DNA from: a virus
Taxonomy: Duplodnaviria; Heunggongvirae; Uroviricota; Caudoviricetes
Strand: one strand, 5' to 3'
Virus record (IMG/VR): IMGVR_UViG_2663763400_000006
DNA: 55,493 nucleotides
A program made the translations under genes and the position numbers. The notes under the pieces are model-generated. The model saw only the letters and a list, made by a program, of their open reading frames with translations, did no database searches and was not told the origin of the DNA. Of this stretch, positions 2,645 to 38,924 are shown in pieces; position 1 is the stretch's first letter, and every line of letters begins with the position of its first letter.

Positions 2645-3321
2645 CGCCATTGCTCCCCAAATACAAAACCAATTTCAGCCAGTGCCTCGTCCATTTTTTC
2701 GATGAACTCCGGCACCATCTCGTCAAAACTCGCCATGTACTTTTCATTCCGCTCAATCACGACATAATGCAGGCCTTCACGCTTCATGCGCGGGTCATAG
2801 TTGGCAAAGTACCAGGCATCTTTTCGCGTCACCCACATGCTGTACTGCACCTGGGCCATGTAAGCCGATTTTATTGCCTCGAAACCACCGAGCCGGAATT
2901 TCATGAAATCCCGGGAGGTAAACGGGCATTTCAGTTCAAGGCCGTTGCCGTCACTGCATAAACCATCGGGAGAGCAGGCGGTGCGCATACTTTCGTCGCG
3001 ATAGATGATCGGGGATTCAGTAATATTCACGCCGGAAGTGAATTCAAACAGGGTTCTGGCGTCGTTCTCGTACTGTTTTCCCCAGGCCAGCGCCTTAGCA
3101 TTAACTTCCGGAGCCACACCGGTGCAAACCTCAGCCAGCAGGGTGTGGAAGTAGGACATTTTCATGTCAGGCCACTTCTTTCCTGAGCGGGGCTTTGCTA
3201 TCACGTTGTGAACTTCTGAAGCGGTGATGACGCCGAGCCGTAATTTGTGCCATGCATCATCCCCCTGTTCGACAGCTCTCACGTCGATCCCGGTACGCTG
3301 CAGGATAATGTCCGGTATCAT
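2641..3321 (-). CDS. exo: Lambda-type 5'-3' exonuclease (Red alpha)
   Basis: 226 aa, near-identical over its length to lambda Exo as recalled ([40 protein letters not shown]...). Confidence 0.95.
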
Positions 3322-4103
3322 GCTGCCACCTTCTGCTCAGTGGCTTTCTGTTTCAGGAATCCAAGAGCTTTCACTGCTTCGGCCTGTGTCAGTTCTGACG
3401 AGGCGCGAATGTCGCGGCGAAATATCTGGGAACAGAGCGGCAATAAGTCGTCATCCCATGTTTTATCCAGGGCGATCAGCAGAGTGTTAATCTCCTGCAT
3501 GGTTTCATCGTTAACCGGAGTGATGTCGCGTTCCGGCTGACGTTCTGCAGTGTATGCAGTATTTTCGACAATGCGCTCGGCTTCATCCTTGTCATAGATA
3601 CCAGCAAATCCGAAGGCCAGACGGGCACACTGAATCATGGCTTTATGCCGTAACATCCGTTTGGGATGCGACTGCCACGGCCCCGTGATTTCTCTGCCTT
3701 CGCGAGTTTTGAATGGTTCGCGGCGGCATTCATCCATCCATTCGGTAACGCAGATCGGATGATTACGGTCCTTGCGGTAAATCCGGCATGTACAGGATTC
3801 ATTGTCCTGCTCAAAGTCCATGCCATCAAACTGCTGGTTTTCATTGATGATGCGGGACCAGCCATCAACGCCCACCACCGGAACGATGCCGTTCTGCTTA
3901 TCAGGGAAGGCGTAAATTTCTTTCGTCCACGGATTAAGGCCGTACTGGTTGGCGACGATCAACAATGCGATGAACTGCGCATCGCTGGCATCACCTTTAA
4001 ATGCCGTCTGGCGAAGAGTGGTGATCAGTTCCTGTGGGTCGACAGAATCCATGCCGACACGTTCAGCCAGCTTCCCAGCCAGCGTTGCGAGTGCTGTACT
4101 CAT
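3318..4103 (-). CDS. bet: Single-strand annealing protein Bet (Red beta)
   Basis: 261 aa, matches lambda Bet as recalled ([48 protein letters not shown]...); 4-bp overlap with exo. Confidence 0.95.
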
Positions 4104-4108
4104 CCGTT

Positions 4109-4405
4109 TTATACCTCTGAATCAATATCAACCTGGTGGTGAGCAATGGTTTCAACCATGTACCGGATGTGTTCTGCCATGCGCTCCTGAAACTCAACAT
4201 CGTCATCAAACGCACGGGTAATGGCTTTTTTGCTGGCCCCGTGGCGTTGCAAATGATCGATGCATAGCGATTCAAACAGGTGCTGGGGCAGGCCTTTTTC
4301 CATGTCGTCTGCCAGTTCTGCCTCTTTCTCTTCACGGGCGATCTGCTGGTAGTGACGCGCCCAGCTCTGAGCCTCAAGACGATCCTGAATGTAATAAGCG
4401 TTCAT
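4109..4405 (-). CDS. gam: Gam, host RecBCD inhibitor (short form)
   Basis: 98 aa, [60 protein letters not shown]... matches the C-terminal 98 aa of lambda Gam; no long-form N-terminal extension is open upstream. Confidence 0.9.
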
Positions 4406-4543
4406 GGATAAACTCCTGAAATTTTGATGTGCGGATCCAGACAGTGCGTTAACTGCATAGTTGTTTGAATGAACTCGCTTGATTAATCAAAATGTTGGAT
4501 CACACTATGTCTTGCTCAAAATCTGATAAATAAGGTGTCTAGA

Positions 4544-4849
4544 ATGCTGATTGATAAGTTAAAGTCTTCTCCGATGTACCCAACCGCAGAAATGGGTAAG
4601 CAGTCGAAAAAGAATCATTGGTATGTAAGGGAAAAGGGGAGTGATCAACCGCAAGACCAGACCTGGAGAGCTTGGTGGGAATCTCGCTCGCTTGGCAAAG
4701 GCCATATCAATTGGAGATCTACATGCGTAGCAGAAAATGTACTCGATCCATTCAATCCGCCATCTCGGTTTGAGGTTGATTTCAAAGCCCCTGATGGGAG
4801 TATCTACAACCTTGAATTTGCTTTGGCTCCACACGGCCCAAACAAGTGA
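4544..4849 (+). CDS. Hypothetical protein (possible moron, opposite to early-left transcription)
   Basis: ORF with ATG at 4544 preceded by AAGGTG Shine-Dalgarno (the ORF-track start at 4535 is GTG); no recognisable domain. Confidence 0.4.
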   Translation: MLIDKLKSSPMYPTAEMGKQSKKNHWYVREKGSDQPQDQTWRAWWESRSLGKGHINWRSTCVAENVLDPFNPPSRFEVDFKAPDGSIYNLEFALAPHGPNK

Positions 4850-4853
4850 GTAG

Positions 4854-5144
4854 TTAGTGGCTCAGACCACCGCCAGTACCATTCAGGTAAACCTCCACGA
4901 GCAAATCTTTTGTGTACGTTCGTTCGATGCCGCGATGCAAGTAAAGCCGACCGCGCAAATTAGCTGATGCCGTCCAGGTACCATCTTTGTGTTTAACCAG
5001 CATACCTGGCCGGACGGCACCGCGATTAACGGTCTGAGTTCCGTAATGTTGATGAACCATAAAAACTCCTGCCCGTAAGCTGGGCTGCTGAACATATAGA
5101 GACTTCTGCGCGTATTCAGGCGGTGGATGGCCGCCGGTTGTCAT
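4854..5144 (-). CDS. Hypothetical protein, first ORF downstream of the putative pL/OL
   Basis: 96-aa ORF in the position where lambda has N, but it lacks an arginine-rich N-terminal motif. Confidence 0.3.
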   Translation of the reverse strand: MTTGGHPPPEYAQKSLYVQQPSLRAGVFMVHQHYGTQTVNRGAVRPGMLVKHKDGTWTASANLRGRLYLHRGIERTYTKDLLVEVYLNGTGGGLSH

Positions 5145-5340
5145 AACTAAGCCGCCTCGTTGAAGCGACTGAGGTATGAAGTGTTGAGTTGATTTCAGCT
5201 GGTCACACCGACGTTAACGCGTCCGCTTCACCCCTCGCACTCCCCGGAGCCTGCTGAAATTCAAGCTGCGGATCTAAGCGGTCATCGCAACGGCGAATCA
5301 GGTGGTTGCCGTATCGTTGTGTTGTTGCGACATGGTGATA

Positions 5341-5385
5341 ATAGCTATTGCTATTAGTGATATCAATACTTATTGCTATTGATTG
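5341..5385. promoter_or_regulatory. Putative OL operator/pL region
   Basis: Clustered TTGCTATT / ATAGCTATT motifs (atagctattgctattagtga...tattgctattg); the same motif recurs in the cI-cro intergenic region. Confidence 0.4.
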
Positions 5386-5504
5386 ATGCATTTTGATATT
5401 AACTGTTTGATAGCAAAAGGAATTAATTTTGTGACTTGCATCGCATAGCGATAACTGAAGCGGGGGTTATGGTGGTTTTTTGAACGGTGTGTGATGAGGG
5501 GAGG

Positions 5505-5535
5505 CAAAAGAAAACCCGGCACGACGGCCGGGGAA
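5505..5535 (-). terminator. Rho-independent terminator ending the cI operon
   Basis: Inverted repeat cccggc/gccggg with a U-rich tail when read on the minus strand, immediately 3' of the 287-aa gene. Confidence 0.5.
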
Positions 5536-5536
5536 A

Positions 5537-6400
5537 TCATTTCGCATCTACAATAAATAACCTGTTTATCTGGCCTTTTTTAACAGTAGCCTTTGCGGTT
5601 ATAGTGAATACTGCAGATGGATCACCTTTGGTTGATATATATGCACTAAGAGCTCTAATATACGGGTTATTCTTCTTTCCTGCAGCTGGATCGCTAATTT
5701 CAGCAGTGATTCTCTTTTTTGAGTCATCACCATCTAAAATTATTTTAGCTGTCATATTTTGTGCATCAAATTCTGTAAGAAAAGCACGATACTCACGAAG
5801 ACCGAGAACTTCATCATCATCAAGCCTATCAATTTCAGCTTTATCTCTCTCATTAACTTTTAGAAGGCAGCCGTCAACATTTGTTGCAACACTTATCTGA
5901 TCGCAAGTATTACCAATAGGTGATACTGCCTGCCTTACAGAGGGGCGAAGCTCTACAGCCATTCGGTCAATCAAAGAGATCAACTTATCAATGGTTCCAG
6001 CATCCTTGTTTCCTAGTGCCTCTATGGCCTTTTCAAGTGACTGCTGCAAAGCTTTCATTTCATCTTTCTTGTTAGAATTTCTCGCAAAAATATATTGTAG
6101 TATTGCGCCAAGTATAGTTGCGGCGATCCCCGAGAACAACTGGTTCTGAGTGGCGAAGTTAAGAACTGCTTCAAGAGTAAAGCAGTTAGCTTTTGCTTCG
6201 CGTGCGTAAACCTTAACTTCCTGATAATTAATGTATTTACTATATTTTTGTGTAACAGAGAAAGAAGCTGCTGTTGAGAGAACTTTAGAAAAACCCTTTA
6301 GGGATTCTCCTAGGCAGTTCAAATCTATTTCATGATTTAAAGCATCTTTTCCGTCATACCTAAGAGAGATTTTTATATCCTGTAAAGCGTCACAATCCAT
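5537..6400 (-). CDS. Unknown 287-aa protein with one central hydrophobic segment, in the rexAB position
   Basis: ATG at 6400; AT-rich codon usage unlike flanking phage genes; hydrophobic segment [19 protein letters not shown]; co-directional with and 3' of cI, followed by a terminator. Confidence 0.6.
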
Positions 6401-20839: not shown

Positions 20840-21060
20840 CATTTTGCGGGTCCTTTCCGGCGATCCGACAGGTTACGGGGCGGCGACCTCGCGGGTTTTC
20901 GCTATTTATGAAAATTTTCCGGTTTAAGGTGTTTCCGTTCTTCTTCGCCGTAACCTAATGTTTTTATTTAAAACACCCCCTGAAAAGAAAGGAAACGACA
21001 GGTGCTGAAAGCGAGCTTTTTGGCCTCTGTCGTTTCCTTTCTCTGTTTTTGTCCGTGGAA
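20840..21060. other. Phage cos site (cosQ-cosN-cosB)
   Basis: GGGCGGCGACCT cohesive-end sequence at about 20878-20889 inside gggtcctttccggcgatcc...cgggttttcgctatttatga, directly upstream of Nu1; lambda-like as recalled. Confidence 0.85.
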
Positions 21061-21066
21061 TGAGCA

Positions 21067-21586
21067 ATGGAAGTCAACAAAAAGCAGCTGGCTGACATTT
21101 TCGGTGCGAGTATCCGTACCATTCAGAACTGGCAGGAACAGGGAATGCCCGTTCTGCGAGGCGGTGGCAAGGGTAATGAGGTGCTTTATGACTCTGCCGC
21201 CGTCATAAAATGGTATGCCGAAAGGGATGCTGAAATTGAGAACGAAAAGCTGCGCCGGGAGGTTGAAGAACTGCTGCAGGCCAGCGAGACAGATCTCCAG
21301 CCAGGGACTATTGAGTACGAACGCCATCGACTTACGCGTGCGCAGGCCGACGCACAGGAGCTGAAAAATGCCAGAGACTCCGCTGAAGTGGTGGAAACCG
21401 CATTCTGTACTTTCGTGCTGTCGCGTATCGCAGGTGAAATTGCCAGTATTCTCGACGGGATCCCCCTGTCGGTGCAGCGGCGTTTTCCGGAACTGGAAAA
21501 CCGACATGTTGATTTCCTGAAACGGGATATCATCAAAGCCATGAACAAAGCAGCCGCGCTGGATGAACTGATACCGGGGTTGCTGA

Positions 21587-21612
<26 letters not shown>
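21067..21612 (+). CDS. nu1: Terminase small subunit Nu1
   Basis: 181 aa, MEVNKKQLADIFGASIRTIQNWQEQGMPVLRGGGKGNEVLYD... matches lambda Nu1 as recalled. Confidence 0.95.
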
Positions 21613-27010: not shown

Positions 27011-27256
27011 ATGTCGATGTACACAACCGCCCAGCTGCTGGCGGCAAATGAGCAGAAATTTAAGTTTGATCCGCTGTTTCTGCGTCTCTTTTTCCGTGAG
27101 AGCTATCCCTTCACCACGGAGAAAGTCTATCTCTCACAAATTCCGGGGCTGGTAAACATGGCGCTGTACGTTTCGCCGATTGTTTCCGGTGAGGTTATCC
27201 GCTCCCGTGGCGGCTCCACCTCTGAATTTACGCCGGGATATGTCAAGCCGAAGCAC
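27011..27256 (+). pseudogene. E: Major capsid protein E, 5' fragment truncated by an insertion
   Basis: MSMYTTAQLLAANEQKFKFDPLFLRLFFRESYPFTTEKVYLSQIPGLVNMALYVSPIVSGEVIRSRGGSTSEFTPGYVKPKH then diverges into 9 unrelated codons and a stop at 27286. Confidence 0.85.
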
Positions 27257-27365
27257 TTAGCATGGCTTTCTGAGGCTTTCGTGTAGTTGCTGGTTTTTAC
27301 ACTTAATCTTTTGATAATAAAGAATAAGTTTATCTGGTGCTTTCACTGAATTTTCCTCGTTATCT

Positions 27366-27403
27366 GTGTGTTGCAATCATCTCTGTATTGCAGCTTGTAT
27401 TGC
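27366..27403. repeat. TGTATTGCA-type direct repeats upstream of the island integrase (possible arm sites)
   Basis: ctgtgtgttgcaatcatctctgtattgcagcttgtattgc; a similar pair occurs near the right end at about 38014-38040. Confidence 0.4.
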
Positions 27404-27418
27404 TTTTTGGGGCTAAAA

Positions 27419-28654
27419 ATGGCTGGCGAGAACAAACTGAGCGACAAAGCGCTTAAAGGATATCTGGGGAAACCCAGAGAAAAGCAGATCACCATTGCTG
27501 ATGGAAAGGGGCTTTCTATTCGTGTGAGTACTAAAGGGGCTGTGAGCTTTGTTTTCTTCTACAGGTTAGCAGGTGGCCGGGCTGCTCCGGTCTGGCTAAC
27601 GTTGGGTAAATATCCTGATATGTCACTCAAACAGGCAAGGGAAAAGCGCGACGAGTGCCGTGGTTGGTTGGCTGACAAACGTGATCCGCGTATCCAGATT
27701 AAGATTCAGGCTGAAGAACGCTTAAAGCCGGTCACTGTGGAGGATGCACTAAATTACTGGTATGAAAATTACTGTAAGGTGCGTCGTAAAACTCATGCTG
27801 TAACGCTTGGCAGATTTCGAAAGCATATCTTTCCCTATATCGGTCATTTGCCCGTAAATGACACTCACCTATATGAATGGCTGGACTGTTTTGACCGAAT
27901 TAAACGTAATGCACCAGTTATGGCGGCGTATGTTTTTTCTGACACTAAATTAGCTCTTCGTTTTTGTCGGGTACGCCAGTACGCGACGTGTGATGCTTTA
28001 AAGGATTTGCGCATGAGTGATGTGGGGCAGATTGCAGGTAAGCGGGATCGGGTTCTGGATGAAGCCGAACTCGGCCAGCTCTGGAAGGCAATTTTTGTCG
28101 AGCCTGATTTAAAACTAATGTCTGAATACACGCGAAAAATGTTTGTGCTTTGTACAGTATTTGGATGTCGAATGAGTGAAGCCCGATTATCAGAATGGAG
28201 CGAATGGGATCTCGAAAGTTGGGTTTGGACTGTACCAAAAGATCACTCAAAAACTGGTGTTGAAATCGTCAGACCAGTACCTGAAATTCTACGACAGTGG
28301 GTAACGGATGTTCACGAAGAGACAAAACATACTGGTTATGTGCTGGGAAGTCTGCGAATTAGAGAAAGCGTAAGCAAGATTGGGGGGAAAATCGGTAAAC
28401 GTTTGGGCCATGAAAAACAATGGTCACTACACGACCTTAGAAGAACGCTATCTACTCATCTAAGTGATCTCGGTGTTGAATTTTATGTAGTAGAACAACT
28501 GTTAGGCCATGCGCTACCTGGCGTGGCAGGTGTTTACAACCGGAGTAAGTTTATGGCTAAAAAACTGGATGCTCTGGAACTCTGGACTACATATCTCAAT
28601 AGCATCGCAGGTGCTGATTCAAAAGTGACAATCCTCAAACAAAAGGTTGGTTAA
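27419..28654 (+). CDS. int: Island tyrosine integrase (P4/CP4-57 type)
   Basis: MAGENKLSDKALKG...GKGLSIRVSTKG N-terminus typical of P4-family integrases; C-terminal HDLRRT...LGHA...YNRSK catalytic motifs. Confidence 0.85.
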   Translation: MAGENKLSDKALKGYLGKPREKQITIADGKGLSIRVSTKGAVSFVFFYRLAGGRAAPVWLTLGKYPDMSLKQAREKRDECRGWLADKRDPRIQIKIQAEERLKPVTVEDALNYWYENYCKVRRKTHAVTLGRFRKHIFPYIGHLPVNDTHLYEWLDCFDRIKRNAPVMAAYVFSDTKLALRFCRVRQYATCDALKDLRMSDVGQIAGKRDRVLDEAELGQLWKAIFVEPDLKLMSEYTRKMFVLCTVFGCRMSEARLSEWSEWDLESWVWTVPKDHSKTGVEIVRPVPEILRQWVTDVHEETKHTGYVLGSLRIRESVSKIGGKIGKRLGHEKQWSLHDLRRTLSTHLSDLGVEFYVVEQLLGHALPGVAGVYNRSKFMAKKLDALELWTTYLNSIAGADSKVTILKQKVG

Positions 28655-28655
28655 C

Positions 28656-28883
28656 ATGAAAAAAATGGCAATTGTTGATAAAAAGGGTCTGGAGTACATT
28701 CCTAACATTGACCGAATGATCCGTGAGAAAGAATGTCGGGAGCTAACCACTCTTGCGAACAGCACACGCTGGAAGCTGGAGAAGGAAGGAAAATTTCCTA
28801 AGCGGATCAAGATTGGTTCCACTGCTGTTGCATATCGTCTTTCAGAAGTGCAGGCATGGATTCGAGGTGAGTGGGTAGTTTAA
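28656..28883 (+). CDS. alpA: AlpA-family excisionase/transcriptional regulator
   Basis: MKKMAIVDKKGLEYIPNIDRMIREKECRELTTLANSTRWKLEKEGKFPKRIKIGSTAVAYRLSEVQAWI, AlpA-like HTH; directly follows the integrase. Confidence 0.7.
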   Translation: MKKMAIVDKKGLEYIPNIDRMIREKECRELTTLANSTRWKLEKEGKFPKRIKIGSTAVAYRLSEVQAWIRGEWVV

Positions 28884-28952
28884 ATTATCTCAGAATAAAA
28901 TATTATGAATTACTGATTTGAGAATTTGTACTCAAATCAGTAATAACATTCT

Positions 28953-29489
28953 TTATAAGAGATTAAATCCAAATAAAGAGTAATCATATACCGGGGTGCA
29001 TTGCATTCCACTGAATATGCTGATGTTTTTTTCTGTTTCTATCCTTTTTTCAATAAGTTGTTGTATATTTTTACAGTACAATTTGTGTGTGATGTTATTA
29101 TCGTAAGCCTGATATAGCAACGTCAATGTTGACGCTAGGAAACATACAGATAAAATTAAAGTAACATATGCGGTTTTTTTATTTTTTGTCCATGATCTAT
29201 TTGTTTGTGAAATATAAAGAATTCTGATGTGGATAATGGTGAGAGACAATAGCAGGCCACTCAATAAAATAAGTATTGGGTTTGCGTATTTTATTAATGG
29301 TTGAGAGCAAAAAACTATTATAGCTCCTGTGACTGCGTATGAGAAAAAGGAGTAATTAAACTTCTTACTCCTTCTCTCAAGTATTTTAATTTCATCTTGT
29401 GTGGGGGTTTTAGATGCCTCTAATATAAGTTTATTGAATGTTTCTGTTATCTTGTTTTTTGTGTTTGTGGCTATTTTTTTTAGATTCAT
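28953..29489 (-). CDS. Unknown multi-pass membrane protein (island cargo)
   Basis: 178-aa ORF, extremely AT-rich, three to four hydrophobic helices; antisense to int and alpA. Confidence 0.5.
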   Translation of the reverse strand: MNLKKIATNTKNKITETFNKLILEASKTPTQDEIKILERRSKKFNYSFFSYAVTGAIIVFCSQPLIKYANPILILLSGLLLSLTIIHIRILYISQTNRSWTKNKKTAYVTLILSVCFLASTLTLLYQAYDNNITHKLYCKNIQQLIEKRIETEKNISIFSGMQCTPVYDYSLFGFNLL

Positions 29490-29839
29490 AGCATTCTAAC
29501 TCCCTTAACTTATTTATTACTTTCTCTTTATGATAAGAGAGGGGAATGACTTGGTAAAGTGATTTGTCATTAATAATGATAATCCTTGCGATAAATATTT
29601 CTGCAAGTTATTTATCTGTTTGTTGCTATCTTGTTAAGCGTTGGGTGTGGTTTATGTTTGGAGCGACTTTATTTAATCGTGATTTTATGGATTTATATTT
29701 ATATCCTGTAAGATAAGCGCATGTTAGTTCAGGAGTAGTGTCAGATAAAATTATTCGGAGTAGAACTACCTTTTCTGTTTATTGCCAGTATTTACATAGC
29801 AATGCGCCGTAGTTACTCACATCACGGCGCTGATACTAA

Positions 29840-30142
29840 TTATTCAGATTCTTTGGCTTTACGCCGCTGGAGTTCTTCACGAGCGACGGCTACGAGTTGC
29901 CCGATTTCCTCCGCTGCCTTGATGCCGATTTGTTCGACCTTAGCTAAGGCATCCAGTGAAGACACGAGGGGATTTTCTCCGCTTCCTTCTGCCTGGCGGC
30001 GGGCGATCTCACCGCGCATGGCGGTTACTATGAATCCGGCGTTGCTCTCGCCGTCCAGTTTTACGGATTCCATGCCCTCCATAACATCGTGGGGAACCCT
30101 GATCGTTGTCATTTGCGATTTTGCATTTTTGTATACAGACAT
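29840..30142 (-). CDS. Putative ribbon-helix-helix regulator (candidate island repressor)
   Basis: 100-aa ORF (MTTIRVPHDVMEGMESVKL...), divergent from the rightward island operon across a repeat-containing intergenic region. Confidence 0.4.
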   Translation of the reverse strand: MSVYKNAKSQMTTIRVPHDVMEGMESVKLDGESNAGFIVTAMRGEIARRQAEGSGENPLVSSLDALAKVEQIGIKAAEEIGQLVAVAREELQRRKAKESE

Positions 30143-30149
30143 AGTTAAT

Positions 30150-30260
30150 CACCAATTTGTTATGTGTATATCACTATACACAAAAGTGATATATAAAAAC
30201 ACTTGCAATGTATATCACCACAATATAATGTATATCTCACATTATGGTCGCTATGTATCT
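30150..30260. promoter_or_regulatory. Island divergent promoter/operator region with TGTATATCAC-type repeats
   Basis: tgtgtatatcactatacacaaaagtgatatataaaaacacttgcaatgtatatcaccacaatataatgtatatctcaca: four or more copies of TGTATATC(A/T)C in both orientations. Confidence 0.45.
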
Positions 30261-30350
30261 CACAATGATCGATTCATAAAAACGACGAAACCCGGCAGTG
30301 CGCGAACACTAACCGGGCTTCTAACCAAACCGTTAAACGAGGTAACGATT

Positions 30351-30716
30351 ATGGCTGGAACACAGCATACCCAAACTCACCCTAAATTTATATACACCTT
30401 TCTGGCACTACACCACGACCGCATGGCAGATGGAGCAACTACGGTACATGTAGCCGCTGACACGCTGGTTGATGCCCGCAAGATGGTTAAGGAGATGGGC
30501 TATACTGCGGCTTTCTGGAAAGGGCGTGAAGAAAACACGCTGTTTATTCAGAAATGCGAAAACAATTTCATCTGGCGTTTTATCGCCCTGAGTACGGCAC
30601 AACCGCGCGTGATTCACATCGTGGCCACCAGCGAACAGGAAGCCCGCCAGCAATCCCCGGCTGGTTGCGTGAGGGTATTCGCCGCCCGTATTCGTCAGGA
30701 GGTATGCCGTGCTTAA
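30351..30716 (+). CDS. Hypothetical protein, first gene of the rightward island operon
   Basis: 121-aa ORF beginning MAGTQHTQTHPKF; the ORF-track entry 29802..30716 is this gene with a spurious upstream extension. Confidence 0.4.
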   Translation: MAGTQHTQTHPKFIYTFLALHHDRMADGATTVHVAADTLVDARKMVKEMGYTAAFWKGREENTLFIQKCENNFIWRFIALSTAQPRVIHIVATSEQEARQQSPAGCVRVFAARIRQEVCRA

Positions 30717-30894
30717 AACCTTCCGTGTATTTGCCCGAGCGGTTAACCCACGAGGCCACACAATTGGTATCACTCAGAACGTGAAGGCTGTTAATGTTCA
30801 GACGGCTATTGCTGTGGTGAGAAGCGAATCATCAGAATATGGCTTATCACAAGTCATTATTTCAGCAGTGTATGAATTAAAAGAGGTGCATTAA
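30709..30894 (+). CDS. Hypothetical small protein
   Basis: 61-aa ORF, tightly packed with neighbours. Confidence 0.3.
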   Translation: MLKTFRVFARAVNPRGHTIGITQNVKAVNVQTAIAVVRSESSEYGLSQVIISAVYELKEVH

Positions 30895-31085
30895 TGCAGG
30901 AAATTACATTACACGAAGCCGCTGAACGTGCGCACCAGACAGAAATTATTTGCCGCCTTCTTGAGGTATACCCGAACAAAATTACAGATGCTGATATATC
31001 CGCACTGGCGAGCCTACTGGCGCGTCTTTCGGGAAGTGTCGCTAGTTTTTTGATTGAGGAAGAAAGTAAGCTGGTGGGGGATTAA
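30894..31085 (+). CDS. Hypothetical small protein
   Basis: 63-aa ORF, start overlaps the previous stop. Confidence 0.3.
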   Translation: MQEITLHEAAERAHQTEIICRLLEVYPNKITDADISALASLLARLSGSVASFLIEEESKLVGD

Positions 31086-31307
31086 ATGAATACAGAACGG
31101 GAAGTCTTTTTTAAATTGTTAGCATGTGCAGAAAGTTCATTAACTTTAAATAATTCAGCAAAAGCAATATTAAATATGTGGCTTGATTGCATAAATGACA
31201 ATGAAGATGCAAATATTGCTTATGGCCTGTTGTCACTTATTGATGAAGCAGCAGAAAAACTCAATGACGCAATAAATAGTGCCCTGTTATCAAATAAGTC
31301 GAGTTAA
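31086..31307 (+). CDS. Hypothetical small protein
   Basis: 73-aa acidic ORF. Confidence 0.3.
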   Translation: MNTEREVFFKLLACAESSLTLNNSAKAILNMWLDCINDNEDANIAYGLLSLIDEAAEKLNDAINSALLSNKSS

Positions 31308-31324
31308 GTCGAGGAATAAATAAT

Positions 31325-31624
31325 ATGGAAATGAAAAATTCTGGCTTTATTGCCAGCGGCCCCGCTCGGCCTGAATTTATGAACGGCGATATTTACCGCG
31401 ATAAATACGGCGGCACGGTAACGATTAAAGGCGTGGCAGAACGGCGCATCACTTACCGCCGTGAGGGGTATAGCTATGACTGCGTGATGCCTGTTTATCA
31501 GTTCCGGCGTGATTTTTCCCTGGTATATGCCGCACCTCGCAGTAAGCCCACCAGCAGGGAAAAAGCGCGGGGAAACATCCAGAAAATGAAAAGCATGATT
31601 AACGCATTCAGGGGCAAAAAATGA
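31325..31624 (+). CDS. Hypothetical small protein
   Basis: 99-aa ORF overlapping the primase start. Confidence 0.3.
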   Translation: MEMKNSGFIASGPARPEFMNGDIYRDKYGGTVTIKGVAERRITYRREGYSYDCVMPVYQFRRDFSLVYAAPRSKPTSREKARGNIQKMKSMINAFRGKK

Positions 31625-33372
31625 AACTGGCACCGAACTTAAAAAAACAGCCACGCGACAGACTGACAGAGGTAATCATCTTTGCAGGTAGTGATGCGTG
31701 GAGCCATGCGAAAGAGTGGCAGGAATGGGCGGGTAAACATATTGCCGCCGACGATGTGCCGCCTGTCGTGCTGGCTGATGAGCAACTGAAAAACATCATC
31801 GATTACCGGATCATTGATGAAGATCGTCAGTGTGTGCGTGTTTACCGCGCAGGACATATCACAGAGCACAGCATGACGCAGATTGTTACGTTACTGGCTG
31901 TGGCTGGAGTGAAGACCGTACACGAATACGCGGGGATTACTGACACCAGCCCCGTGGATTTATCCGACCAGTTGCCGCGACTCAAAGAGGAATGCGAGCG
32001 TGGGGAAAGTCTGGTGCTTAATCTTCCGACGAAGCAAAAGGCGCAACTTTCACAGATGGCAGACAGTGAACGTGCACAACTACTTGCCGATCGCTTTGAT
32101 GGTGTGTGTGTTCATGCAGAAAGTGAAATCGTCCACGTATGGCGCGGCGGGGTATGGTGTCCGGTCAGCACAATGGAGCTGAGCCGCGAAATGGTGGCGA
32201 TCTATTCAGAGCACAGGGCCACGTTCAGCAAACGTGTAATCAATAACGCCGTGGAAGCGTTAAAAGTTATTGCCGACCCCATGGGGGAGCCGTCCGGTGA
32301 TTTACTACCGTTCACTAATGGTGTGCTTAACCTGAAAACGGGGGATTTTTCTCCGCACTTACCGGAGCACTGGAGCACCACGCACAATGGCATTGAGTAC
32401 ACGCCACCAGTAGCAGGGGAAAACATCCGCGATAATGCGCCAAATTTCCATAAATGGCTTGAACATGCTGCAGGAAAAGACCCGCGCAAGATGATGCGTA
32501 TATGTGCCGCGTTATACATGATTATGGCGAACCGCTACGACTGGCAGATGTTCATTGAGGCCACCGGAGACGGGGGAAGCGGTAAGAGTACATTTACCCA
32601 TATTGCCACCCTGCTTGCTGGCAAACAGAACACCGTAAGCGCAGAGATGACATCACTCGATGATGCAGGAGGGCGCGCGCAGGTTGTCGGGAGTCGTCTT
32701 ATCGTCCTTGCCGATCAGCTGAAATATACGGGGGAAGGCACGGGCATCAAGAAAATCACGGGAGGCGATCCCGTTGAAATTAACCCGAAATATGAGAAGC
32801 GATTCACGACGATAATAAGGGCGGTGGTACTGGCAACCAATAACGACCCGATGATCTTTACCGAACGGGCCGGAGGTGTGTCACGCCGTCGGGTGATTTT
32901 CCGGTTCGACAACATTGTAAGGGAGGACGAAAAAGACAAGGAATTACCGGAAAAGATAGCGGCAGAAATCCCCGTAATTATCCGCCGCTTGCTGGCTAAT
33001 TTTGCTGACCCTGAAAAGGCACGGGCTTTATTACTGGAACAGCGTGACGGTGATGAAGCTCTGGCAATAAAGCAGCAAACGGATCCGGTTGTTGAGCTTT
33101 GCGCGGCGCTGGAGTTTCTGGAGGAAGCTCGTGGGCTAATGATGGGCGGTGGTGGTGACACCGTGAAGTACACGACCAGAAACAGCCTTTACCGTGTCTA
33201 TATGGCCTTCATGGCATATACAGGAAAGGGGAAATGTTTGAGCGTGAATGAGTTCGGAAAGGCTATGAGGTCAGCGGCGAAAGTTTACGGATATGAATAT
33301 ATTACGCGAAAAGTTAAGGGAGTCACGCAGACCAACGCAACGACTACTGATGATTGCGATGCGTTTTTATAA
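31621..33372 (+). CDS. Primase-helicase replication protein (D5_N / P4 alpha-like)
   Basis: 583 aa with Walker A GDGGSGKST and downstream helicase-like motifs. Confidence 0.8.
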   Translation: MKLAPNLKKQPRDRLTEVIIFAGSDAWSHAKEWQEWAGKHIAADDVPPVVLADEQLKNIIDYRIIDEDRQCVRVYRAGHITEHSMTQIVTLLAVAGVKTVHEYAGITDTSPVDLSDQLPRLKEECERGESLVLNLPTKQKAQLSQMADSERAQLLADRFDGVCVHAESEIVHVWRGGVWCPVSTMELSREMVAIYSEHRATFSKRVINNAVEALKVIADPMGEPSGDLLPFTNGVLNLKTGDFSPHLPEHWSTTHNGIEYTPPVAGENIRDNAPNFHKWLEHAAGKDPRKMMRICAALYMIMANRYDWQMFIEATGDGGSGKSTFTHIATLLAGKQNTVSAEMTSLDDAGGRAQVVGSRLIVLADQLKYTGEGTGIKKITGGDPVEINPKYEKRFTTIIRAVVLATNNDPMIFTERAGGVSRRRVIFRFDNIVREDEKDKELPEKIAAEIPVIIRRLLANFADPEKARALLLEQRDGDEALAIKQQTDPVVELCAALEFLEEARGLMMGGGGDTVKYTTRNSLYRVYMAFMAYTGKGKCLSVNEFGKAMRSAAKVYGYEYITRKVKGVTQTNATTTDDCDAFL

Positions 33373-33389
33373 AAAATGGCAATGGTTAT

Positions 33390-33640
33390 CTACCTTGTCT
33401 ACCTGACTGAAATAAAATACTTTTATTTCAATGTATTAATGCAGGTAGATAACTATTTTTCACTGTCTACCTGTTATCTACCTTATCTACCCATTTTTGT
33501 AGACAGGTAAGGAGACGGGTAGAGATGAGGTAGACAGCTATTTGGGGCTGTCTACCTCCCTGAAACCCGCGCCATTACTGGCCTGATAACTAATCAGGTA
33601 GACAAGGTAGACAAGGTGGTGGTGCACAAAAAACTTTTTA
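33390..33640. repeat. Island replication origin iterons
   Basis: Ten or more copies of GGTAGACA / TGTCTACC in both orientations immediately downstream of the primase-helicase gene. Confidence 0.65.
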
Positions 33641-33661
33641 AACGAGGGGGTAAAAATAAAA

Positions 33662-33904
33662 ATGCACACATCAGGAAAACTGAACAAACATATAAAGCCA
33701 CATTACCGCGCCCTTGATATGGCTGAACACTGGCTAAGGGTGGCGATTAAGGCAATAGACCGCAACGCCGGGGAAGGATACGCGAAAGCACATCCCGAAC
33801 TGATAAGCGCATTCATGACAACGGCGGCTGCAAACTTTGCCACGCTGACCGAACGGGAGATTGCCGAAGCGGAGGAAGTGACAACCATCAATATTAAGTC
33901 CTGA
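33662..33904 (+). CDS. Hypothetical protein
   Basis: 80-aa ORF between the origin and ssb. Confidence 0.3.
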   Translation: MHTSGKLNKHIKPHYRALDMAEHWLRVAIKAIDRNAGEGYAKAHPELISAFMTTAAANFATLTEREIAEAEEVTTINIKS

Positions 33905-33915
33905 GAGCAGGCAGC

Positions 33916-34365
33916 ATGACGGCGCAAATAGCAGCTTACGGGCGGCTGGTGGACGACCCACAGGTAAAACATACCAGCAAGGGAACACCCATGACACTGG
34001 CACGGATGGCGGTATCTTTGCCATGCAGCCAGGCAGATGACGGAACGGCGACGATGTGGTTATCTGTGCTGGCGTTTGGCAGACAAGCCGACGCGCTGGC
34101 AAAGCATCACAAAGGCGAACTCCTGAGCGTGGCGGGTAATATGCAGGTGAGCCAGTGGAGCGGACAGAACGGGGAAACGCGGCAGGGCTGGCAGGTTATC
34201 GCAGACAGCGTAATCAGTGCCAGAACGGTGCGACCGGGCGGCAAAAAAGGTCAACAGGGGCAGGCTACTGATGCACTGAACAGAGCAAAACAACAGGCAG
34301 ATCAGCAAGGAAGCCATCCACCAGTGGGAGATAATGAGCAATGGGGAGATGATATTCCGTTTTAA
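33916..34365 (+). CDS. ssb: Single-stranded DNA-binding protein
   Basis: OB-fold-like N-terminal domain and Gly/Gln-rich tail ending in the acidic motif DDIPF. Confidence 0.7.
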   Translation: MTAQIAAYGRLVDDPQVKHTSKGTPMTLARMAVSLPCSQADDGTATMWLSVLAFGRQADALAKHHKGELLSVAGNMQVSQWSGQNGETRQGWQVIADSVISARTVRPGGKKGQQGQATDALNRAKQQADQQGSHPPVGDNEQWGDDIPF

Positions 34366-34575
34366 ATATTGCCAATAAAAAAGGCCGGAAAAAATATATT
34401 TTCCGGCATGCTACATAAATCCCGACCAAAGGGAGTGAAGATATTAACACTAATTATCCGCGCTGAAGTTGTCATCCCAAAACTTTATACAACATTGCAC
34501 TCGGTTGCATGTGTTAGCATGACAAATATCGGTGATAGCATATATCCACAATTATTTTTAATGAATGTAAAGAGG

Positions 34576-35622
34576 ATGAGTATGGTTGATTTATATTCGC
34601 CTGCCCAGCTTGTGCAGGTGGCTAATGCAGAAGAGGTGCAAAAAAAATTAAATGCATTGTTTACCAGTTTGTTTTTCACTCGCTCGGTAATGTTTGAATC
34701 AAGAGACATTATTCTTGATACAATCGACGATCCAAATATCCCAATTGCAGCGTTTTGTTCTCCTATGGTGGGTAGTAAAGTTTCACGTGACGAAGGGTAC
34801 GAATCAAAGACAATTCGTCCAGGCTATATGAAGCCGAAAAGCAGCATTGATCCAAATAAGTTAGCTGTGCGCCCTGCTGGTGTATCACCTGAGCAATACA
34901 ATGCTTTTGGAGCGCGTAATATTAAAGTTAAACAGGCGATTGTAAATCAGGCTAAAGCTATTCGTGCACGTATTGAATGGCTTGCCGTTCAGGCAATCAC
35001 AACGGGGAAAAATATCATTGAGGGCGATGGCATTGAACGCTATGAACTGGACTGGAATATAAAACCACAAAATATTATCACGCAGTCCGGCGGTGCTGAG
35101 TGGTCAGGTAAGGATAAAGAAACTTTTGATCCAAATGATGATATTGAGAGCTACGCAGAATTTAGTGAGGGCGTCACTAATATCATCATTATGGGCGGTA
35201 ATGTATGGAAGAAATACCGTTCATTCAGAGCGATAAAAGAGGCTCTGGATACCCGTCGTGGTTCTAATTCCGAACTGGAAACGGCCCTTAAAGACCTTGG
35301 TGATTCGGTGAGTTTTAAAGGGTATATGGGCGATGTTGCGATTGTTGTATACAGCGGGCGTTATACCGACGAGGACGGAACTGAAAAACATTTCCTTGAT
35401 CCTGATTTGATGGTGCTTGGCAATACGGCTCTTCAGGGGATTGTCGCCTATGGCGGTATTCAGGATCCGGAGCTAATCCGAATGGGGCTGACTAAAGCCG
35501 AACTTGCACCGAAAAACTATATTGTGCCTGGTGATCCGGCTATTGAATATGTGCAGACACATTCAGCACCACAGCCAATACCGGCCCGCATCAATCGTTT
35601 TGTTACCGTTCGCATTGGCTAA
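34576..35622 (+). CDS. Island-encoded major capsid protein homologue (divergent gpE)
   Basis: TQSGGAEWSGKDKETFDPNDDIESYAEF...RSFRAIKEALDTRRGSNSELETALKDLG...YMGDVAIVVYSG aligns with lambda E (TQSGGTEWSKRDKSTYDPTDDIEAYAL...FRSFKAVKEKLDTRRGS.SELETAVKDLG...GDVAIVVYSG); ATG 34576 with AAGAGG Shine-Dalgarno. Confidence 0.8.
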   Translation: MSMVDLYSPAQLVQVANAEEVQKKLNALFTSLFFTRSVMFESRDIILDTIDDPNIPIAAFCSPMVGSKVSRDEGYESKTIRPGYMKPKSSIDPNKLAVRPAGVSPEQYNAFGARNIKVKQAIVNQAKAIRARIEWLAVQAITTGKNIIEGDGIERYELDWNIKPQNIITQSGGAEWSGKDKETFDPNDDIESYAEFSEGVTNIIIMGGNVWKKYRSFRAIKEALDTRRGSNSELETALKDLGDSVSFKGYMGDVAIVVYSGRYTDEDGTEKHFLDPDLMVLGNTALQGIVAYGGIQDPELIRMGLTKAELAPKNYIVPGDPAIEYVQTHSAPQPIPARINRFVTVRIG

Positions 35623-35631
35623 GGGGGAGCA

Positions 35632-35973
35632 ATGGCTACTCATTACACTGAACTCATGGCTGGCACTGAAGCACTGGTGACTACGCTGGGGATATTTTCA
35701 GCTAATAAAGGGGTAATTCCTGCATTTACGCCACTGATGCAGGAAGATGCAACAGGTGCACTGGTGGTATGGGATGGTTCGAGCGTAGGTAAAGCGGTTT
35801 ATGTTTCCGCTGTACAAATCGACACCGCGAAAAAAACACAGGCTCAGGTCTATAAGACAGGTGTCTTAAATGTTGATGCTCTGAACTGGCCTGAGTCTGT
35901 AAAAGAACTGTCAGTAAAGATTGCAGCGTTTGTTGGCTCAGGTATTTCTGTTCAGCCGCTGGCTCGTGTGTAA
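35632..35973 (+). CDS. Island-encoded decoration protein homologue (gpD-like)
   Basis: FTPLMQEDATGALVVWDGSSVGKAV and VYKTGVLNVDALNWPE align with lambda D ([41 protein letters not shown]). Confidence 0.65.
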   Translation: MATHYTELMAGTEALVTTLGIFSANKGVIPAFTPLMQEDATGALVVWDGSSVGKAVYVSAVQIDTAKKTQAQVYKTGVLNVDALNWPESVKELSVKIAAFVGSGISVQPLARV

Positions 35974-35984
35974 AGGGGGATACA

Positions 35985-36368
35985 ATGCAGAATCATTACA
36001 ATGACCTTAAGCCAATTGCCGAAATGATGTATCCGGATCCAGCAGTAGAGGAATTAAAGGCTATTGCTGACAAAATGCGTTTAAGCGAGCGTCTTGTTGA
36101 TATGAATCAGGTGATGGAACTTACAACCCTGAGTCGTCGTACACTGCTAAACCTTGAAGCACGTGGAGAGTTCCCCGAACGCGTGCAGGTTACGGAAGGG
36201 CGTAAGGCCTGGTATTTAAGCGAAGTGATCGACTGGATAAACAATATTCCGCGCGCTTCTGAATATTGCCGCGTACCTGTCCCAAAAAAGCCAGATGCGG
36301 CGCTATGCCTCAAGATTGAGCGTGTACGCCGCAATGCGCGGGATGGTCGCTATAAGCTGATTGGTTGA
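35985..36368 (+). CDS. AlpA-like HTH protein (second copy in the island)
   Basis: LTTLSRRTLLNLEARGEFPERVQVTEGRKAWYLSEVIDWI resembles the AlpA-family HTH signature. Confidence 0.45.
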   Translation: MQNHYNDLKPIAEMMYPDPAVEELKAIADKMRLSERLVDMNQVMELTTLSRRTLLNLEARGEFPERVQVTEGRKAWYLSEVIDWINNIPRASEYCRVPVPKKPDAALCLKIERVRRNARDGRYKLIG

Positions 36369-36379
36369 TGAAATTAGGG

Positions 36380-36470
36380 CCCGTTCTGGCTGGCGGGTCC
36401 TTTCCGGCGATCCAGAACGTTACGGGGCGGCGACCTCGCGGGTTTTCGCTATTTATGAGCATTTTTAGGG
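36380..36470. other. Second cos site (island), cosN conserved with the prophage cos
   Basis: gggtcctttccggcgatccagaacgttacggggcggcgacctcgcgggttttcgctatttatga is nearly identical to 20840-20910; downstream (cosB) sequence differs. Confidence 0.75.
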
Positions 36471-36584
36471 GACTGGTGGTGGTTTTGTTGTTCGCTATAT
36501 CTGTATGAATAATAAGAGAAAAACACAATCAACACACCAACCTGAAACAGTAATTAAGTTGTGGTATCAATGAAATTGCACCTG

Positions 36585-37112
36585 ATGAACAAAAAAAACA
36601 TGGCAAAAAGTTGCCGTGTAAGCGCCACTGCGTTCGATAAGTGGGGAGTGATTCCCGTCGAGCGTAAGGGCCGCGAGGCGTTTTATGATGTCGCCAGTGT
36701 AATAGATAATCGGGTTAACAATGCAATCAGCCAGATTACAAACGAAACGGGCGAGATTGATGATGATGAACTCCTACGAGTCAGGATCAGATTGCTGACA
36801 GCACAGGCAGAGGCGCAGGAGCTTAAAAACGAGCGCGAACGCGGCGACGTTATTGATACAGCGTTTTGTATATACGTGCTTTCAAAACTGGCGAGTCAGA
36901 TTTCTTCAATCATGGACAGCCTGCCGCTTGCCATGACAAGGAAGTTTCCCGACATGAAGCCGTCTATGCTGGATGGACTGAAAAAAGAAGTTATCAGAGC
37001 CTGTAACGCATGCGCAAAACTTGACGAAAACATACCGCTGATGCTGTCCGATTATCTGATGGAAACTGCCGGAAACGTACCGGATAAGTTGCAGCTGAAT
37101 AAAGATAAGTAA
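36585..37112 (+). CDS. Island small terminase homologue (Nu1-like)
   Basis: LLTAQAEAQELKNERERGDVIDTAFCIYVLSKLASQISSIMDSLPLAMTRKFPDMK aligns with prophage Nu1 LTRAQADAQELKNARDSAEVVETAFCTFVLSRIAGEIASILDGIPLSVQRRFPELE; start taken at MNKKNMAK. Confidence 0.75.
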   Translation: MNKKNMAKSCRVSATAFDKWGVIPVERKGREAFYDVASVIDNRVNNAISQITNETGEIDDDELLRVRIRLLTAQAEAQELKNERERGDVIDTAFCIYVLSKLASQISSIMDSLPLAMTRKFPDMKPSMLDGLKKEVIRACNACAKLDENIPLMLSDYLMETAGNVPDKLQLNKDK

Positions 37113-37123
37113 CGTAGTACGCT

Positions 37124-37405
37124 ATGACTGAATCCGAAATACTGCGATTAATCCGCCGTGCTTGTGGAATCAGCAAGCAGCATGACGAACAGGCCACGCA
37201 GCCGGACAGCGTGATCGCCGAAAATTACGCGCGTGTTGTTGCTGATGTGATGCGCCGTGATGGTATTGAGCTTAACGGCGTGGATATGCGCGACATACGG
37301 ATCAGATTCCTTGAGTTGCTGGCATACCGTCGCCGTTCTCAACAACGAAGGGAGAGCGCGAAAAACACTTATCAGTGGAAGAAGCCGGAACGGTTGCGGC
37401 GGTAG
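37124..37405 (+). CDS. Hypothetical protein
   Basis: 93-aa basic ORF following the terS-like gene. Confidence 0.3.
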   Translation: MTESEILRLIRRACGISKQHDEQATQPDSVIAENYARVVADVMRRDGIELNGVDMRDIRIRFLELLAYRRRSQQRRESAKNTYQWKKPERLRR

Positions 37406-38141
37406 ATTCCTGATATTCAGGAAAACCACGAATCCGGGGGTTTTACTGGCGCGGTGTACACGGTGGAACGTATAGCGTTACCTGACTTATTGCATTGTAA
37501 AAAGTTGAAAGGCACGGCCTGTAAGATGGGATGTGGTGAGTAGTTTAAAGCTACCCGCAAATTCTTTCGTTGTGCTGGCACAGGCGGTTAAACCGTCGGT
37601 AACTGGATAATCCCCACTGGGGGAAAAGCTGGCTACATCCCTCACATCTGAGGACTGATAACGCAAAATTGCGTTGGCTGGCAGAGTGCAAATTTGCACG
37701 ATGGCCTAACCCATTGATTCTTTCGAAAACCCCCATTGGGGGAGAACGGGGGAATAAACCTGACTCATTGATTTTTCCACAATCCTTAATTTGAGGAAGC
37801 TGGATAGTTGCACTACCCAAAAAGTGCAGTACCCACATAGCTGCTTAATAGCGTTTATTTTTTCCGCACACCTCAAATCTGAGAAGGCCGGAATGATGAC
37901 ATGGCAGGATTATGATTCCTTGATTTCAAGGAGTCCTCCAGTGTGAAAATGAAATTATCTGGGCTGGTGGGTGAGTTGCTGATCTGCAACTCGGCTATGA
38001 AACTTAATAATCGAACAGCATGTAAATTCATTTCTGTGTATTGCAGCATGTATTGCAACATAGTCATTCTGGTAGAGATTATGCTCTATTTTTCCTCTTA
38101 TATCATTCACATACTTACGTCATTGACTCATGTAGCCGAAG

Positions 38142-38924
38142 CATGAGGTGAATCCGCAGATGACCCTGCGTCGCCTGCCGGATGAAGATCCGCAGAATCT
38201 GGCGGACCCGGCTTACCGCCGCCGTCGCATCATTATGCAGAACATGCGTGACGAAGAGCTGGCCATTGCCCAGGTCGAAGAGATGCAGGCAGTTTCTGCC
38301 GTGCTTAAGGGCAAATACACCATGACCGGTGAAGCTTTCGATCCGGTTGAGGTGGATATGGGCCGCAGTGCGGCCAACAACATCACGCAGTCCGGCGGCA
38401 CGGAGTGGAGCAAGCGTGACAAGTCCACGTATGACCCGACCGACGATATCGAAGCCTACGCGCTGAACGCCAGCGGAGTGGTGAATATCATCGTGTTTGA
38501 TCCGAAAGGCTGGGCGCTGTTCCGTTCCTTCAAAGCCGTCAAGGAGAAGCTGGATACTCGTCGCGGCTCTCATTCCGAGCTGGAGACAGCGGTGAAAGAC
38601 CTGGGCAAAGCGGTGTCCTACAAGGGGATGTATGGCGATGTGGCCATCGTCGTGTATTCCGGACAGTACGTGGAAAACGGCGTCAAAAAGAACTTCCTGC
38701 CGGACAACACGATGGTGCTGGGGAACACTCAGGCACGCGGTCTGCGCACCTATGGCTGCATTCAGGATGCGGACGCACAGCGCGAAGGCATTAACGCCTC
38801 TGCCCGTTACCCGAAAAACTGGGTGACCACCGGCGATCCGGCGCGTGAGTTCACCATGATTCAGTCAGCACCGCTGATGCTGCTGGCTGATCCTGATGAG
38901 TTCGTGTCTGTACAACTGGCGTAA
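38142..38924 (+). pseudogene. E: Major capsid protein E, 3' fragment
   Basis: HEVNPQMTLRRLPDEDPQNLADPAYRRRRIIMQNMRDEE... to the lambda E C-terminus; continues the 5' fragment exactly once the insert is removed. Confidence 0.85.

Follow-up and report, generated by a model that had tools for sequence, protein, structure and literature searches.

A dyad-symmetric iteron array behind the initiator gene as the probable replication origin of a helper-embedded phage-inducible chromosomal island

The stretch of DNA considered here, virus record IMGVR_UViG_2663763400_000006 of IMG/VR (55,493 bp, hereafter the window), carries a complete satellite at positions 27246-38143 on the plus strand, lodged within a lambdoid prophage, whose major capsid gene it interrupts. 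Directly behind the replication initiator gene of this satellite lies a dense array of 8-bp repeats (iterons). With a probability of about 85%, this array is the replication origin of the satellite, a helper-embedded phage-inducible chromosomal island (PICI), and is cognate to the adjacent initiator. The origin reading is preferred because of the clustering of the iterons, their position and layout, an experimentally tested homologue, the origin-binding domain of the neighbouring initiator, the presence of arrays in relatives, the natural swap of a cassette that holds the array, a two-residue switch that accompanies a change of iteron, and a candidate unwinding element. A first-pass annotation of the sequence had proposed an island origin cognate to the island replication protein. 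That proposal gains support from the homology to the origin of EcCICFT073, the match of the initiator to PDB entry 1KA8, the co-variation of the iterons with the C-terminal domain of the initiator, and the cassette swap. Each computational test able to overturn the proposal turned out in its favour. The new interest of the array is limited, because it belongs to a published class with a tested homologue. It is nevertheless a functionally interpretable cis element that RefSeq leaves unannotated in every record among the matches listed.

The clustering of the repeats is pronounced. The motif GGTAGAYA occurs exactly ten times in the window, always inside the 227 bp from 33387 to 33613, where 1.4 copies would be expected in the window and none of 100 shuffled sequences reached ten. 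The single form GGTAGACA is found six times, all at 33396-33613, while the shuffles contained 0.79 copies on average and four at most (0 of 100 reached six). The hexamer GGTAGA is present 18 times in the window, and 11 of these copies fall in the array of about 240 bp, which corresponds to roughly 46 per kb inside the array vs 0.13 per kb outside it. Two further iterons inside the array carry one mismatch each, TGTAGACA at 33498 and GGTAGAGA at 33518, bringing the total to 12. The earlier count of at least ten copies of an 8-bp motif and its complement is thereby confirmed. The array had been said to begin at 33390; the array is real, but its first iteron starts 3 bp earlier, at 33387, which is 15 bp past the stop codon of the initiator gene (33372). 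The intergenic gap that holds the array spans 33373-33661 (289 bp), and the array ends about 45 bp ahead of the next start codon. The array was also described as lying directly 3' of the primase-family gene and directly 5' of ssb. The former is correct, whereas the latter requires amendment, as an 80-aa open reading frame (ORF) stands between the array and ssb.

The 12 iterons are divided equally between the strands and follow the order - - + - - - + + + - + +, a string that is its own reverse complement; the layout has dyad symmetry. The start-to-start spacings are 9, 48, 20, 11, 9, 14, 20, 11, 20, 48 and 9 bp, with the outer spacings being mirror images of each other. The left pair lies on the minus strand and comprises GGTAGATA (33387-33394) and GGTAGACA (33396-33403), 9 bp apart; its position is conserved in alignments of relatives. 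The central block (33444-33556) contains eight iterons in the order + - - - + + + -, located at 33444(+), 33464(-), 33475(-), 33484(-), 33498(+, the variant TGTAGACA), 33518(+, the variant GGTAGAGA), 33529(+) and 33549(-). The right pair, on the plus strand, is made of two copies of GGTAGACA (33597-33604 and 33606-33613), again 9 bp apart, and mirrors the left one. Inverted pairs, likewise noted before, are indeed part of this arrangement: 33527-33538 forms a perfect 12-bp inverted pair with 33547-33558, and the outer arms 33386-33406 and 33594-33614 are 95% complementary. Moreover, a 30-nt unit recurs within the array, at 33443 and 33528, with 80% identity.

The 40-bp spacer between the left pair and the central block (33404-33443) has a GC content of 20% and is a candidate DNA-unwinding element. 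It is flanked by two minus-strand iterons on the left and ten iterons on the right, and it encloses a 9-bp palindrome, GAAATAAAA-TAC-TTTTATTTC. The 30-mer at 33411-33440 is the joint least stable of the island (dG of -28.5 vs a mean of -39.7 kcal/mol, standard deviation 3.9) and belongs to the top 0.02% of the whole window by low stability. The mirror spacer on the right (33557-33596, also 40 bp) has 50% GC and houses a GC-rich non-iteron block, CTGAAACCCGCGCCATTACTGGCC, at 33562-33585. This block is almost invariant between islands that differ in iteron class, and a related form is present in the distant locus L006. It could be a site for a host factor. In other clades, both spacers are AT-rich.

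The array can be compared with that of a Gram-negative PICI whose origin has been tested experimentally. In this group, the origin lies directly 3' of pri-rep and consists of two sets of iterons around an AT-rich region (Fillol-Salom 2018, PMC6092414). More generally, the origins of PICIs, including SaPIs, the pathogenicity islands of Staphylococcus aureus, have at least two iterons on either flank of the AT-rich stretch, in opposite directions (PMC6092414, PMC9371898). In EcCICFT073, the pri-ori segment sustained a plasmid at the restrictive temperature and a rep mutant gave no colonies, while deletion of the origin led to significantly fewer colonies in pri-dependent plasmid replication (PMC6092414). 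The sequence of EcCICFT073 was taken by the coordinates given in the supplement of that paper. The 289-bp gap of the window aligns with the EcCICFT073 origin from end to end at 72% identity. The two share the iteron consensus (TGTCTACC/TATCTACC), the iteron positions, the AT-rich spacer and the location ahead of a small ORF and ssb. The iteron columns of this alignment are 85% identical, compared with 60% for the spacer columns (Fisher p=2e-5).

The protein expected to read these iterons is encoded immediately upstream. The initiator/helicase gene (31621-33372, plus strand) encodes 583 aa and is annotated as 'DNA primase family protein'. Searches against Pfam and NCBIfam divide its product into D5_N (aa 152-282), the superfamily 3 (SF3) helicase domain DUF5906 (aa 315-416) and a C-terminal origin-binding part, where the Pox_D5 match of Pfam falls just under the cut-off. 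Residues 219-441 match the SaPI5 PriRep structure, PDB 7OLA (E=4e-14). The putative iteron reader is a winged-helix origin-binding domain at aa 487-578 (33079-33354, plus strand). This segment matches PDB 1KA8, the origin-binding domain of P4 alpha, over chain residues 2-92 (phmmer, E=2.3e-7), and the C-terminus of P4 alpha has been described as a winged helix (PMC2777425). Within aa 1-150, neither a primase catalytic domain nor any other known domain was detected with Pfam and NCBIfam, searches of limited sensitivity since no structure-based search was included. The designation 'primase-helicase' used previously is consequently retained only in part: helicase and origin-binding parts are detected, a primase catalytic domain is not. 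Judged from its domains, initiator-helicase is the label that the evidence supports.

Arrays of the same kind are widespread in related elements. About 10% of complete Escherichia coli genomes (567 of 5,426) contain homologues of the gap, Nissle 1917 and ATCC 25922 among them. In 75 E. coli genomes, the identity of the region is 99% or more, and in all classes examined the region is intact. A scan with the C-terminal domain, using one genome per species, identified 80 further loci in Enterobacterales and Aeromonas; the window and four islands of E. coli were combined with them into a set of 84 loci. Iterons were called as the most frequent 7-mer within 450 bp past the stop codon. By this measure, about 65 of the 84 loci have an obvious iteron array right after the stop codon. 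Absence of the repeats from related elements had been named as an observation that would speak against an origin; they are instead present at the same place in these loci. At least seven iteron classes can be distinguished, including GGTAGACA, GGTAGAGG, GTAGGGATA, GGTAGGGT, (C)GGACAGT, GGTGGAGAC, GGTGAACA (the P4 type) and GGTGAATA. The orientation grammar, that is, a pair, an AT-rich spacer, a central block, a spacer and a pair, is kept between classes. No obvious array was present within 450 bp after the stop codon at L022, L039, L058, L059, L068, L069, L071, L077, L080 and L084, most of which are from Pantoea, nor within the same distance at L011, L029 and L030. The iterons of these loci could be located elsewhere, or their copies may diverge too much for counting 7-mers to reveal them. 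A search with the 106-aa C-terminal domain returned 13 fragments, and the poor alignment that resulted was not used.

One relative, L094 (locus positions 3256-3469), is a natural variant with a deletion of the central iteron block, which leaves a gap of 214 bp vs about 288 bp. Both outer pairs are kept, as are the AT-rich spacer, the conserved block and a few iterons. This locus may define a minimal origin.

The iterons change together with the C-terminal domain of the initiator. In the close clade, all 11 of 11 loci follow one rule: V-N-[E/D]-F-G accompanies GGTAGA[C/T]A, and V-A-[E/D]-F-S accompanies GGTAGA[G/A]G. In a full-length alignment of ten initiators, only the columns N543->A and G546->S separate the two iteron classes. 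In the window, the codons for N543 to G546 (V-N-E-F-G) occupy 33247-33258 on the plus strand. According to the alignment to 1KA8, these residues would stand at the start of the recognition helix (alpha3), after the conserved Y..Y helix (alpha2). In a second clade, iteron switches go with changes in the C-terminal wing hairpin, for example RKTKNGIRSN with GGTGAACA vs RKQCKGRTISN with GGTAGACA. Each of the at least seven iteron classes is accompanied by a distinct recognition-helix or wing sequence.

A comparison with the closely related locus L089 reveals a natural cassette swap. The L089 initiator is 93% identical to that of the window; it carries the A/S residues, and its iterons are of the GGTAGAGG type. 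The two DNA sequences have an identity of 96-100% over 30759-32558, 42-90% over 32559-33640, and 97-100% from 33641 onwards. The divergent segment, 32559-33640 on the plus strand, takes in the whole array and, from the initiator gene, the 3' third with the helicase and the origin-binding domain, and it is regarded as an exchangeable specificity cassette whose right-hand breakpoint coincides with the array end. Over the 4.7 kb compared, DUF4222, the small ORFs, the 80-aa ORF and SSB are essentially unchanged. Because the other proteins in these 4.7 kb are essentially unchanged, the C-terminal part of the initiator is the only nearby candidate for the reader. The N-terminal 150 aa of the initiator (31621-32070) are only 42-55% identical between initiators that are otherwise 80-99% identical, yet 99% identical to those of L089. 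They look like a third, independently shuffled module, possibly one that contacts replication proteins of the helper or the host.

These observations allow a broader reading, which is put forward tentatively and at slightly less than even odds. The initiator/origin pairs of such satellites would form a naturally orthogonal family, exchanged as a cassette of about 1.1 kb and re-targeted, within one clade, by two residues of the recognition helix. N543/G546 would recognise GGTAGA(C/T)A, and GGTAGA(G/A)G would be the target of A543/S546; in the other clade, the changes seen with an iteron switch are located in the wing hairpin. The 12-site grammar would stay fixed and only the 'word' would change. 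If this is true, the switch would allow several satellites to be replicated side by side in a cell, free of cross-talk and incompatibility, and the recognition of origins by winged helices would follow a simple code that can be read.

The best-supported mechanism of initiation is the model for SaPI Rep and P4 alpha (PMC9371898); for the window island, the binding, the melting, the helicase loading and the number of hexamers are inferred. The SF3 helicase initiator, with its P4-alpha-type C-terminal winged helix, would recognise the 8-bp GGTAGA(C/T)A iterons. Its binding on either side of the 40-bp, 20%-GC spacer at 33404-33443 would melt this spacer. The initiator would then self-load at this site in the form of a hexameric helicase, with two hexamers probably giving bidirectional replication, and the island SSB would cover the single strands. 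Priming may be performed by host DnaG or by the helper, a role proposed because no primase catalytic domain is detectable in the initiator.

Several points weigh against the array being a working origin of this kind. For the window sequence itself, the case is computational and is built on architecture, homology and co-variation. Deletion of the origin of EcCICFT073 lowered colony numbers but did not abolish them (PMC6092414). In Eco567.11capE (hereafter 11capE), two out of three repeats of the induction gave an attP:attB ratio that stayed close to 1 (PMC10111431). This suggests little or no independent replication after excision in 11capE, which has a different replication cassette from that of the window. 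The initiator has no detectable primase catalytic domain with which it would prime DNA synthesis itself. The winged-helix assignment was made by homology only, and a single-sequence AlphaFold2 model of the C-terminal domain had a predicted local distance difference test score (pLDDT) of 39 and was unusable. Finally, the two-residue association may reflect a single historical switch: it draws on four lineages, two per side, and is therefore suggestive rather than statistical proof.

Other functions can also be considered for the array. One is that it is the counterpart of the cis replication region (crr) of P4, a cis-acting enhancer of replication, with the true start at a second, separate cluster. 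The position 3' of an alpha-type gene, the 8-bp repeats in both orientations and the pairs 9 bp apart all match P4 crr closely; an element 'ctgaaat..aaaa' adjoins one pair, and 'aaaaaactttt' stands at the end. However, the island contains no second iteron cluster. Eleven of its 13 GGTAGA copies are in the array, the other two are isolated singles, and one-mismatch matches elsewhere in the island occur at background rate. In addition, EcCICFT073 pri together with its downstream region alone maintained a plasmid (PMC6092414). Both findings contradict the enhancer explanation, which is considered highly improbable. The repeats might also be mainly a transcriptional operator or roadblock, through which the initiator or another island protein controls read-through to the ssb, capsid and terS genes. 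The genes on either side of the array do point the same way and belong to a unidirectional operon, and a scan of 33200-33950 found no terminator between them. Plasmid initiators bound to iterons often autoregulate. The same scan revealed no sigma-70-like promoter overlapping the array or elsewhere in that interval, and an operator needs neither 12 dyad-symmetric sites nor an extreme AT-rich spacer nor homology to a tested origin. As the main role of the repeats, operator function has a very small chance of being correct, although such a role is possible alongside origin function, with which it is compatible.

It is scarcely credible that the array is some other cis site, namely a cos/pac packaging site, a set of integrase arm sites or a partition centromere. 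Repeat arrays do occur in all three, and the island has both a Nu1-like terS and an integrase. For packaging, however, a cos-like sequence common to the helper is present elsewhere, at 36393-36495, just upstream of the island terS. The att cores mark the ends of the island, at distances of 6 kb and 4.5 kb from the array, and there are no partition genes among the annotated island genes. Furthermore, the repeats co-vary with the C-terminal domain of the initiator, and the integrase and terminase genes lie outside the 4.7 kb compared. A somewhat less remote explanation, still considered unlikely, is that the array is a real origin that is now inactive, the embedded satellite being copied passively with its helper. 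The 11capE ratios given above speak for it, and the authors of that study note passive replication in the composite (PMC10111431). On the other side, the iterons are conserved above the spacers, the initiator ORF and ssb are intact, and the array region persists nearly unchanged across 75 E. coli genomes, intact in each class examined. An active origin cognate to the initiator consequently remains the preferred reading.

The island itself is well delimited. A 10-bp att identity block, AGCCGAAGCA, bounds it as a direct repeat at 27246-27255 and 38134-38143, and the flanking halves of the capsid gene are pseudogenes in the RefSeq annotation. The same att block is given for the site group E_Phage_cap_E_80 (PMC10111431 supplement), and the helper-embedded PICI configuration was described by Tommasini, Mageeney & Williams 2023 (PMC10111431). 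The gene order is int, alpA, small variable genes, DUF4222, initiator, array, small ORF and ssb, followed by homologues of capsid E and decoration D, another AlpA-like gene and the gene for a small terminase of the Nu1 type. The unidirectional gene order of PICIs (int, alpA, pri, ssb, capsid genes) is present. The small ORF between the array and ssb (33662-33904, plus strand) encodes an 80-aa hypothetical protein in RefSeq, and its ribosome-binding site lies 3' of the array. The ssb gene (33916-34365, plus strand; Pfam SSB 1.2e-14, TIGR00621) completes the replication module.

Other features of the island and of the array region were also recorded. The second AlpA-family helix-turn-helix (HTH) gene is at 35985-36368 (Pfam Phage_AlpA 1.4e-8), the first alpA being situated beside int at 28647-28883. 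A 103-nt direct repeat with 81% identity is found at 20846-20948 and at 36393-36495. The first copy is just upstream of Nu1/nohD of the prophage (21067-21612), the second just upstream of the Nu1-like terS of the island (36561-37112). The repeat is probably a cos region common to both, by means of which the satellite is packaged. Some copies of the island carry a HEPN and DUF262 gene pair on the opposite strand, at locus positions 15576-17292 in L001 (E. coli strain 104) and 9537-11253 in L096. This pair takes the place of the Nu1-like terS and small ORF of the window island and is likely anti-phage defence cargo. In an Rfam scan of 33000-34000, a single sub-threshold match was obtained at 33382-33663 for RUF4, a family of unknown function (21 bits vs a gathering threshold of 55, E=0.15). 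Although it spans the array, it was judged a chance match in AT-rich repetitive DNA. Coding by the small ORFs at 33376-33510(+) and 33538-33687(-) was rejected, as the repeats change wholesale among relatives while their positions stay fixed. DnaA boxes were likewise rejected: TTATCTACC is two positions off TTATCCACA, which was not counted as evidence.

In terms of biology, the origin offers little novelty: it is established that origins of PICIs lie 3' of pri-rep, and a homologue with 72% identity has been tested. What is new, in a minor way, is the exchange of the cassette and the correlation with two residues. The modest value of these details lies in the indication that an origin and the reading head of its initiator move as one swappable cassette; the window island and 11capE have a common backbone but different initiator/iteron pairs. 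In addition, two residues differ in step with two bases of the iteron, from which orthogonal replicons might be engineered.

Among known systems, EcCICFT073 has a closely related replication module. The Pri-Rep of EcCICFT073 is 80% identical to the window initiator, although only 48% over the N-terminal 150 aa. The integration sites differ, since EcCICFT073 is chromosomal (ycfD-phoQ), whereas the window island sits in the capsid gene of its helper. P4 can be compared as well. P4 and the window island have a homologous C-terminal origin-binding domain and 8-bp iterons in both orientations with pairs 9 bp apart, and the gene for alpha is followed directly, on its 3' side, by crr. The 'ori type 1 repeats' annotated within crr in the P4 record are octamers, TGTTCACC, that occur in either orientation and differ at two positions from the window iteron TGTCTACC. 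However, P4 requires two separated clusters, ori and crr, 4.5 kb apart, while the window island has one. P4 alpha contains a DnaG-type primase domain (PMC2777425), whereas none is detectable in the window initiator with Pfam and NCBIfam. P4 also differs from the window island in overall gene content, and PICIs and P4 are held to be separate lineages (PMC6092414).

The SaPI origins (SaPIbov1, SaPI1, SaPI5; Qiao et al. 2022, PMC9371898) are likewise located directly 3' of rep and served by a C-terminal winged-helix reader. They have 6-12 iterons about an AT-rich region, with opposite orientation on each side (PMC9371898). Their iterons are 5-6 bp long compared with 8 bp in the window. The AT-rich region is central in SaPIs, whereas in the window it follows the first pair and the second, symmetric spacer has turned GC-rich in this clade. 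Moreover, the SaPI host is Gram-positive, and likeness to the window initiator is confined to the helicase core.

Among helper-embedded islands, the founding example 11capE (PMC10111431) belongs to the same capsid gene E site group and shares the backbone of int, alpA, capsid, decoration and HTH genes. Its att block, aacccaagca, is two positions off the agccgaagca of the window, a variant given for other islands of the group. Its origin also lies 3' of a primase-family gene and follows the same orientation grammar. The differences concern the replication cassette and the accessory end. 11capE (L096, NC_017634 1199000-1210800, with the cassette at locus positions 4230-6337) has a 606-aa initiator of another clade, nine P4-type iterons, GGTGAACA, and two AT-rich spacers. 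Its accessory end holds the HEPN/DUF262 genes, and that of the window island holds the Nu1-like terS.

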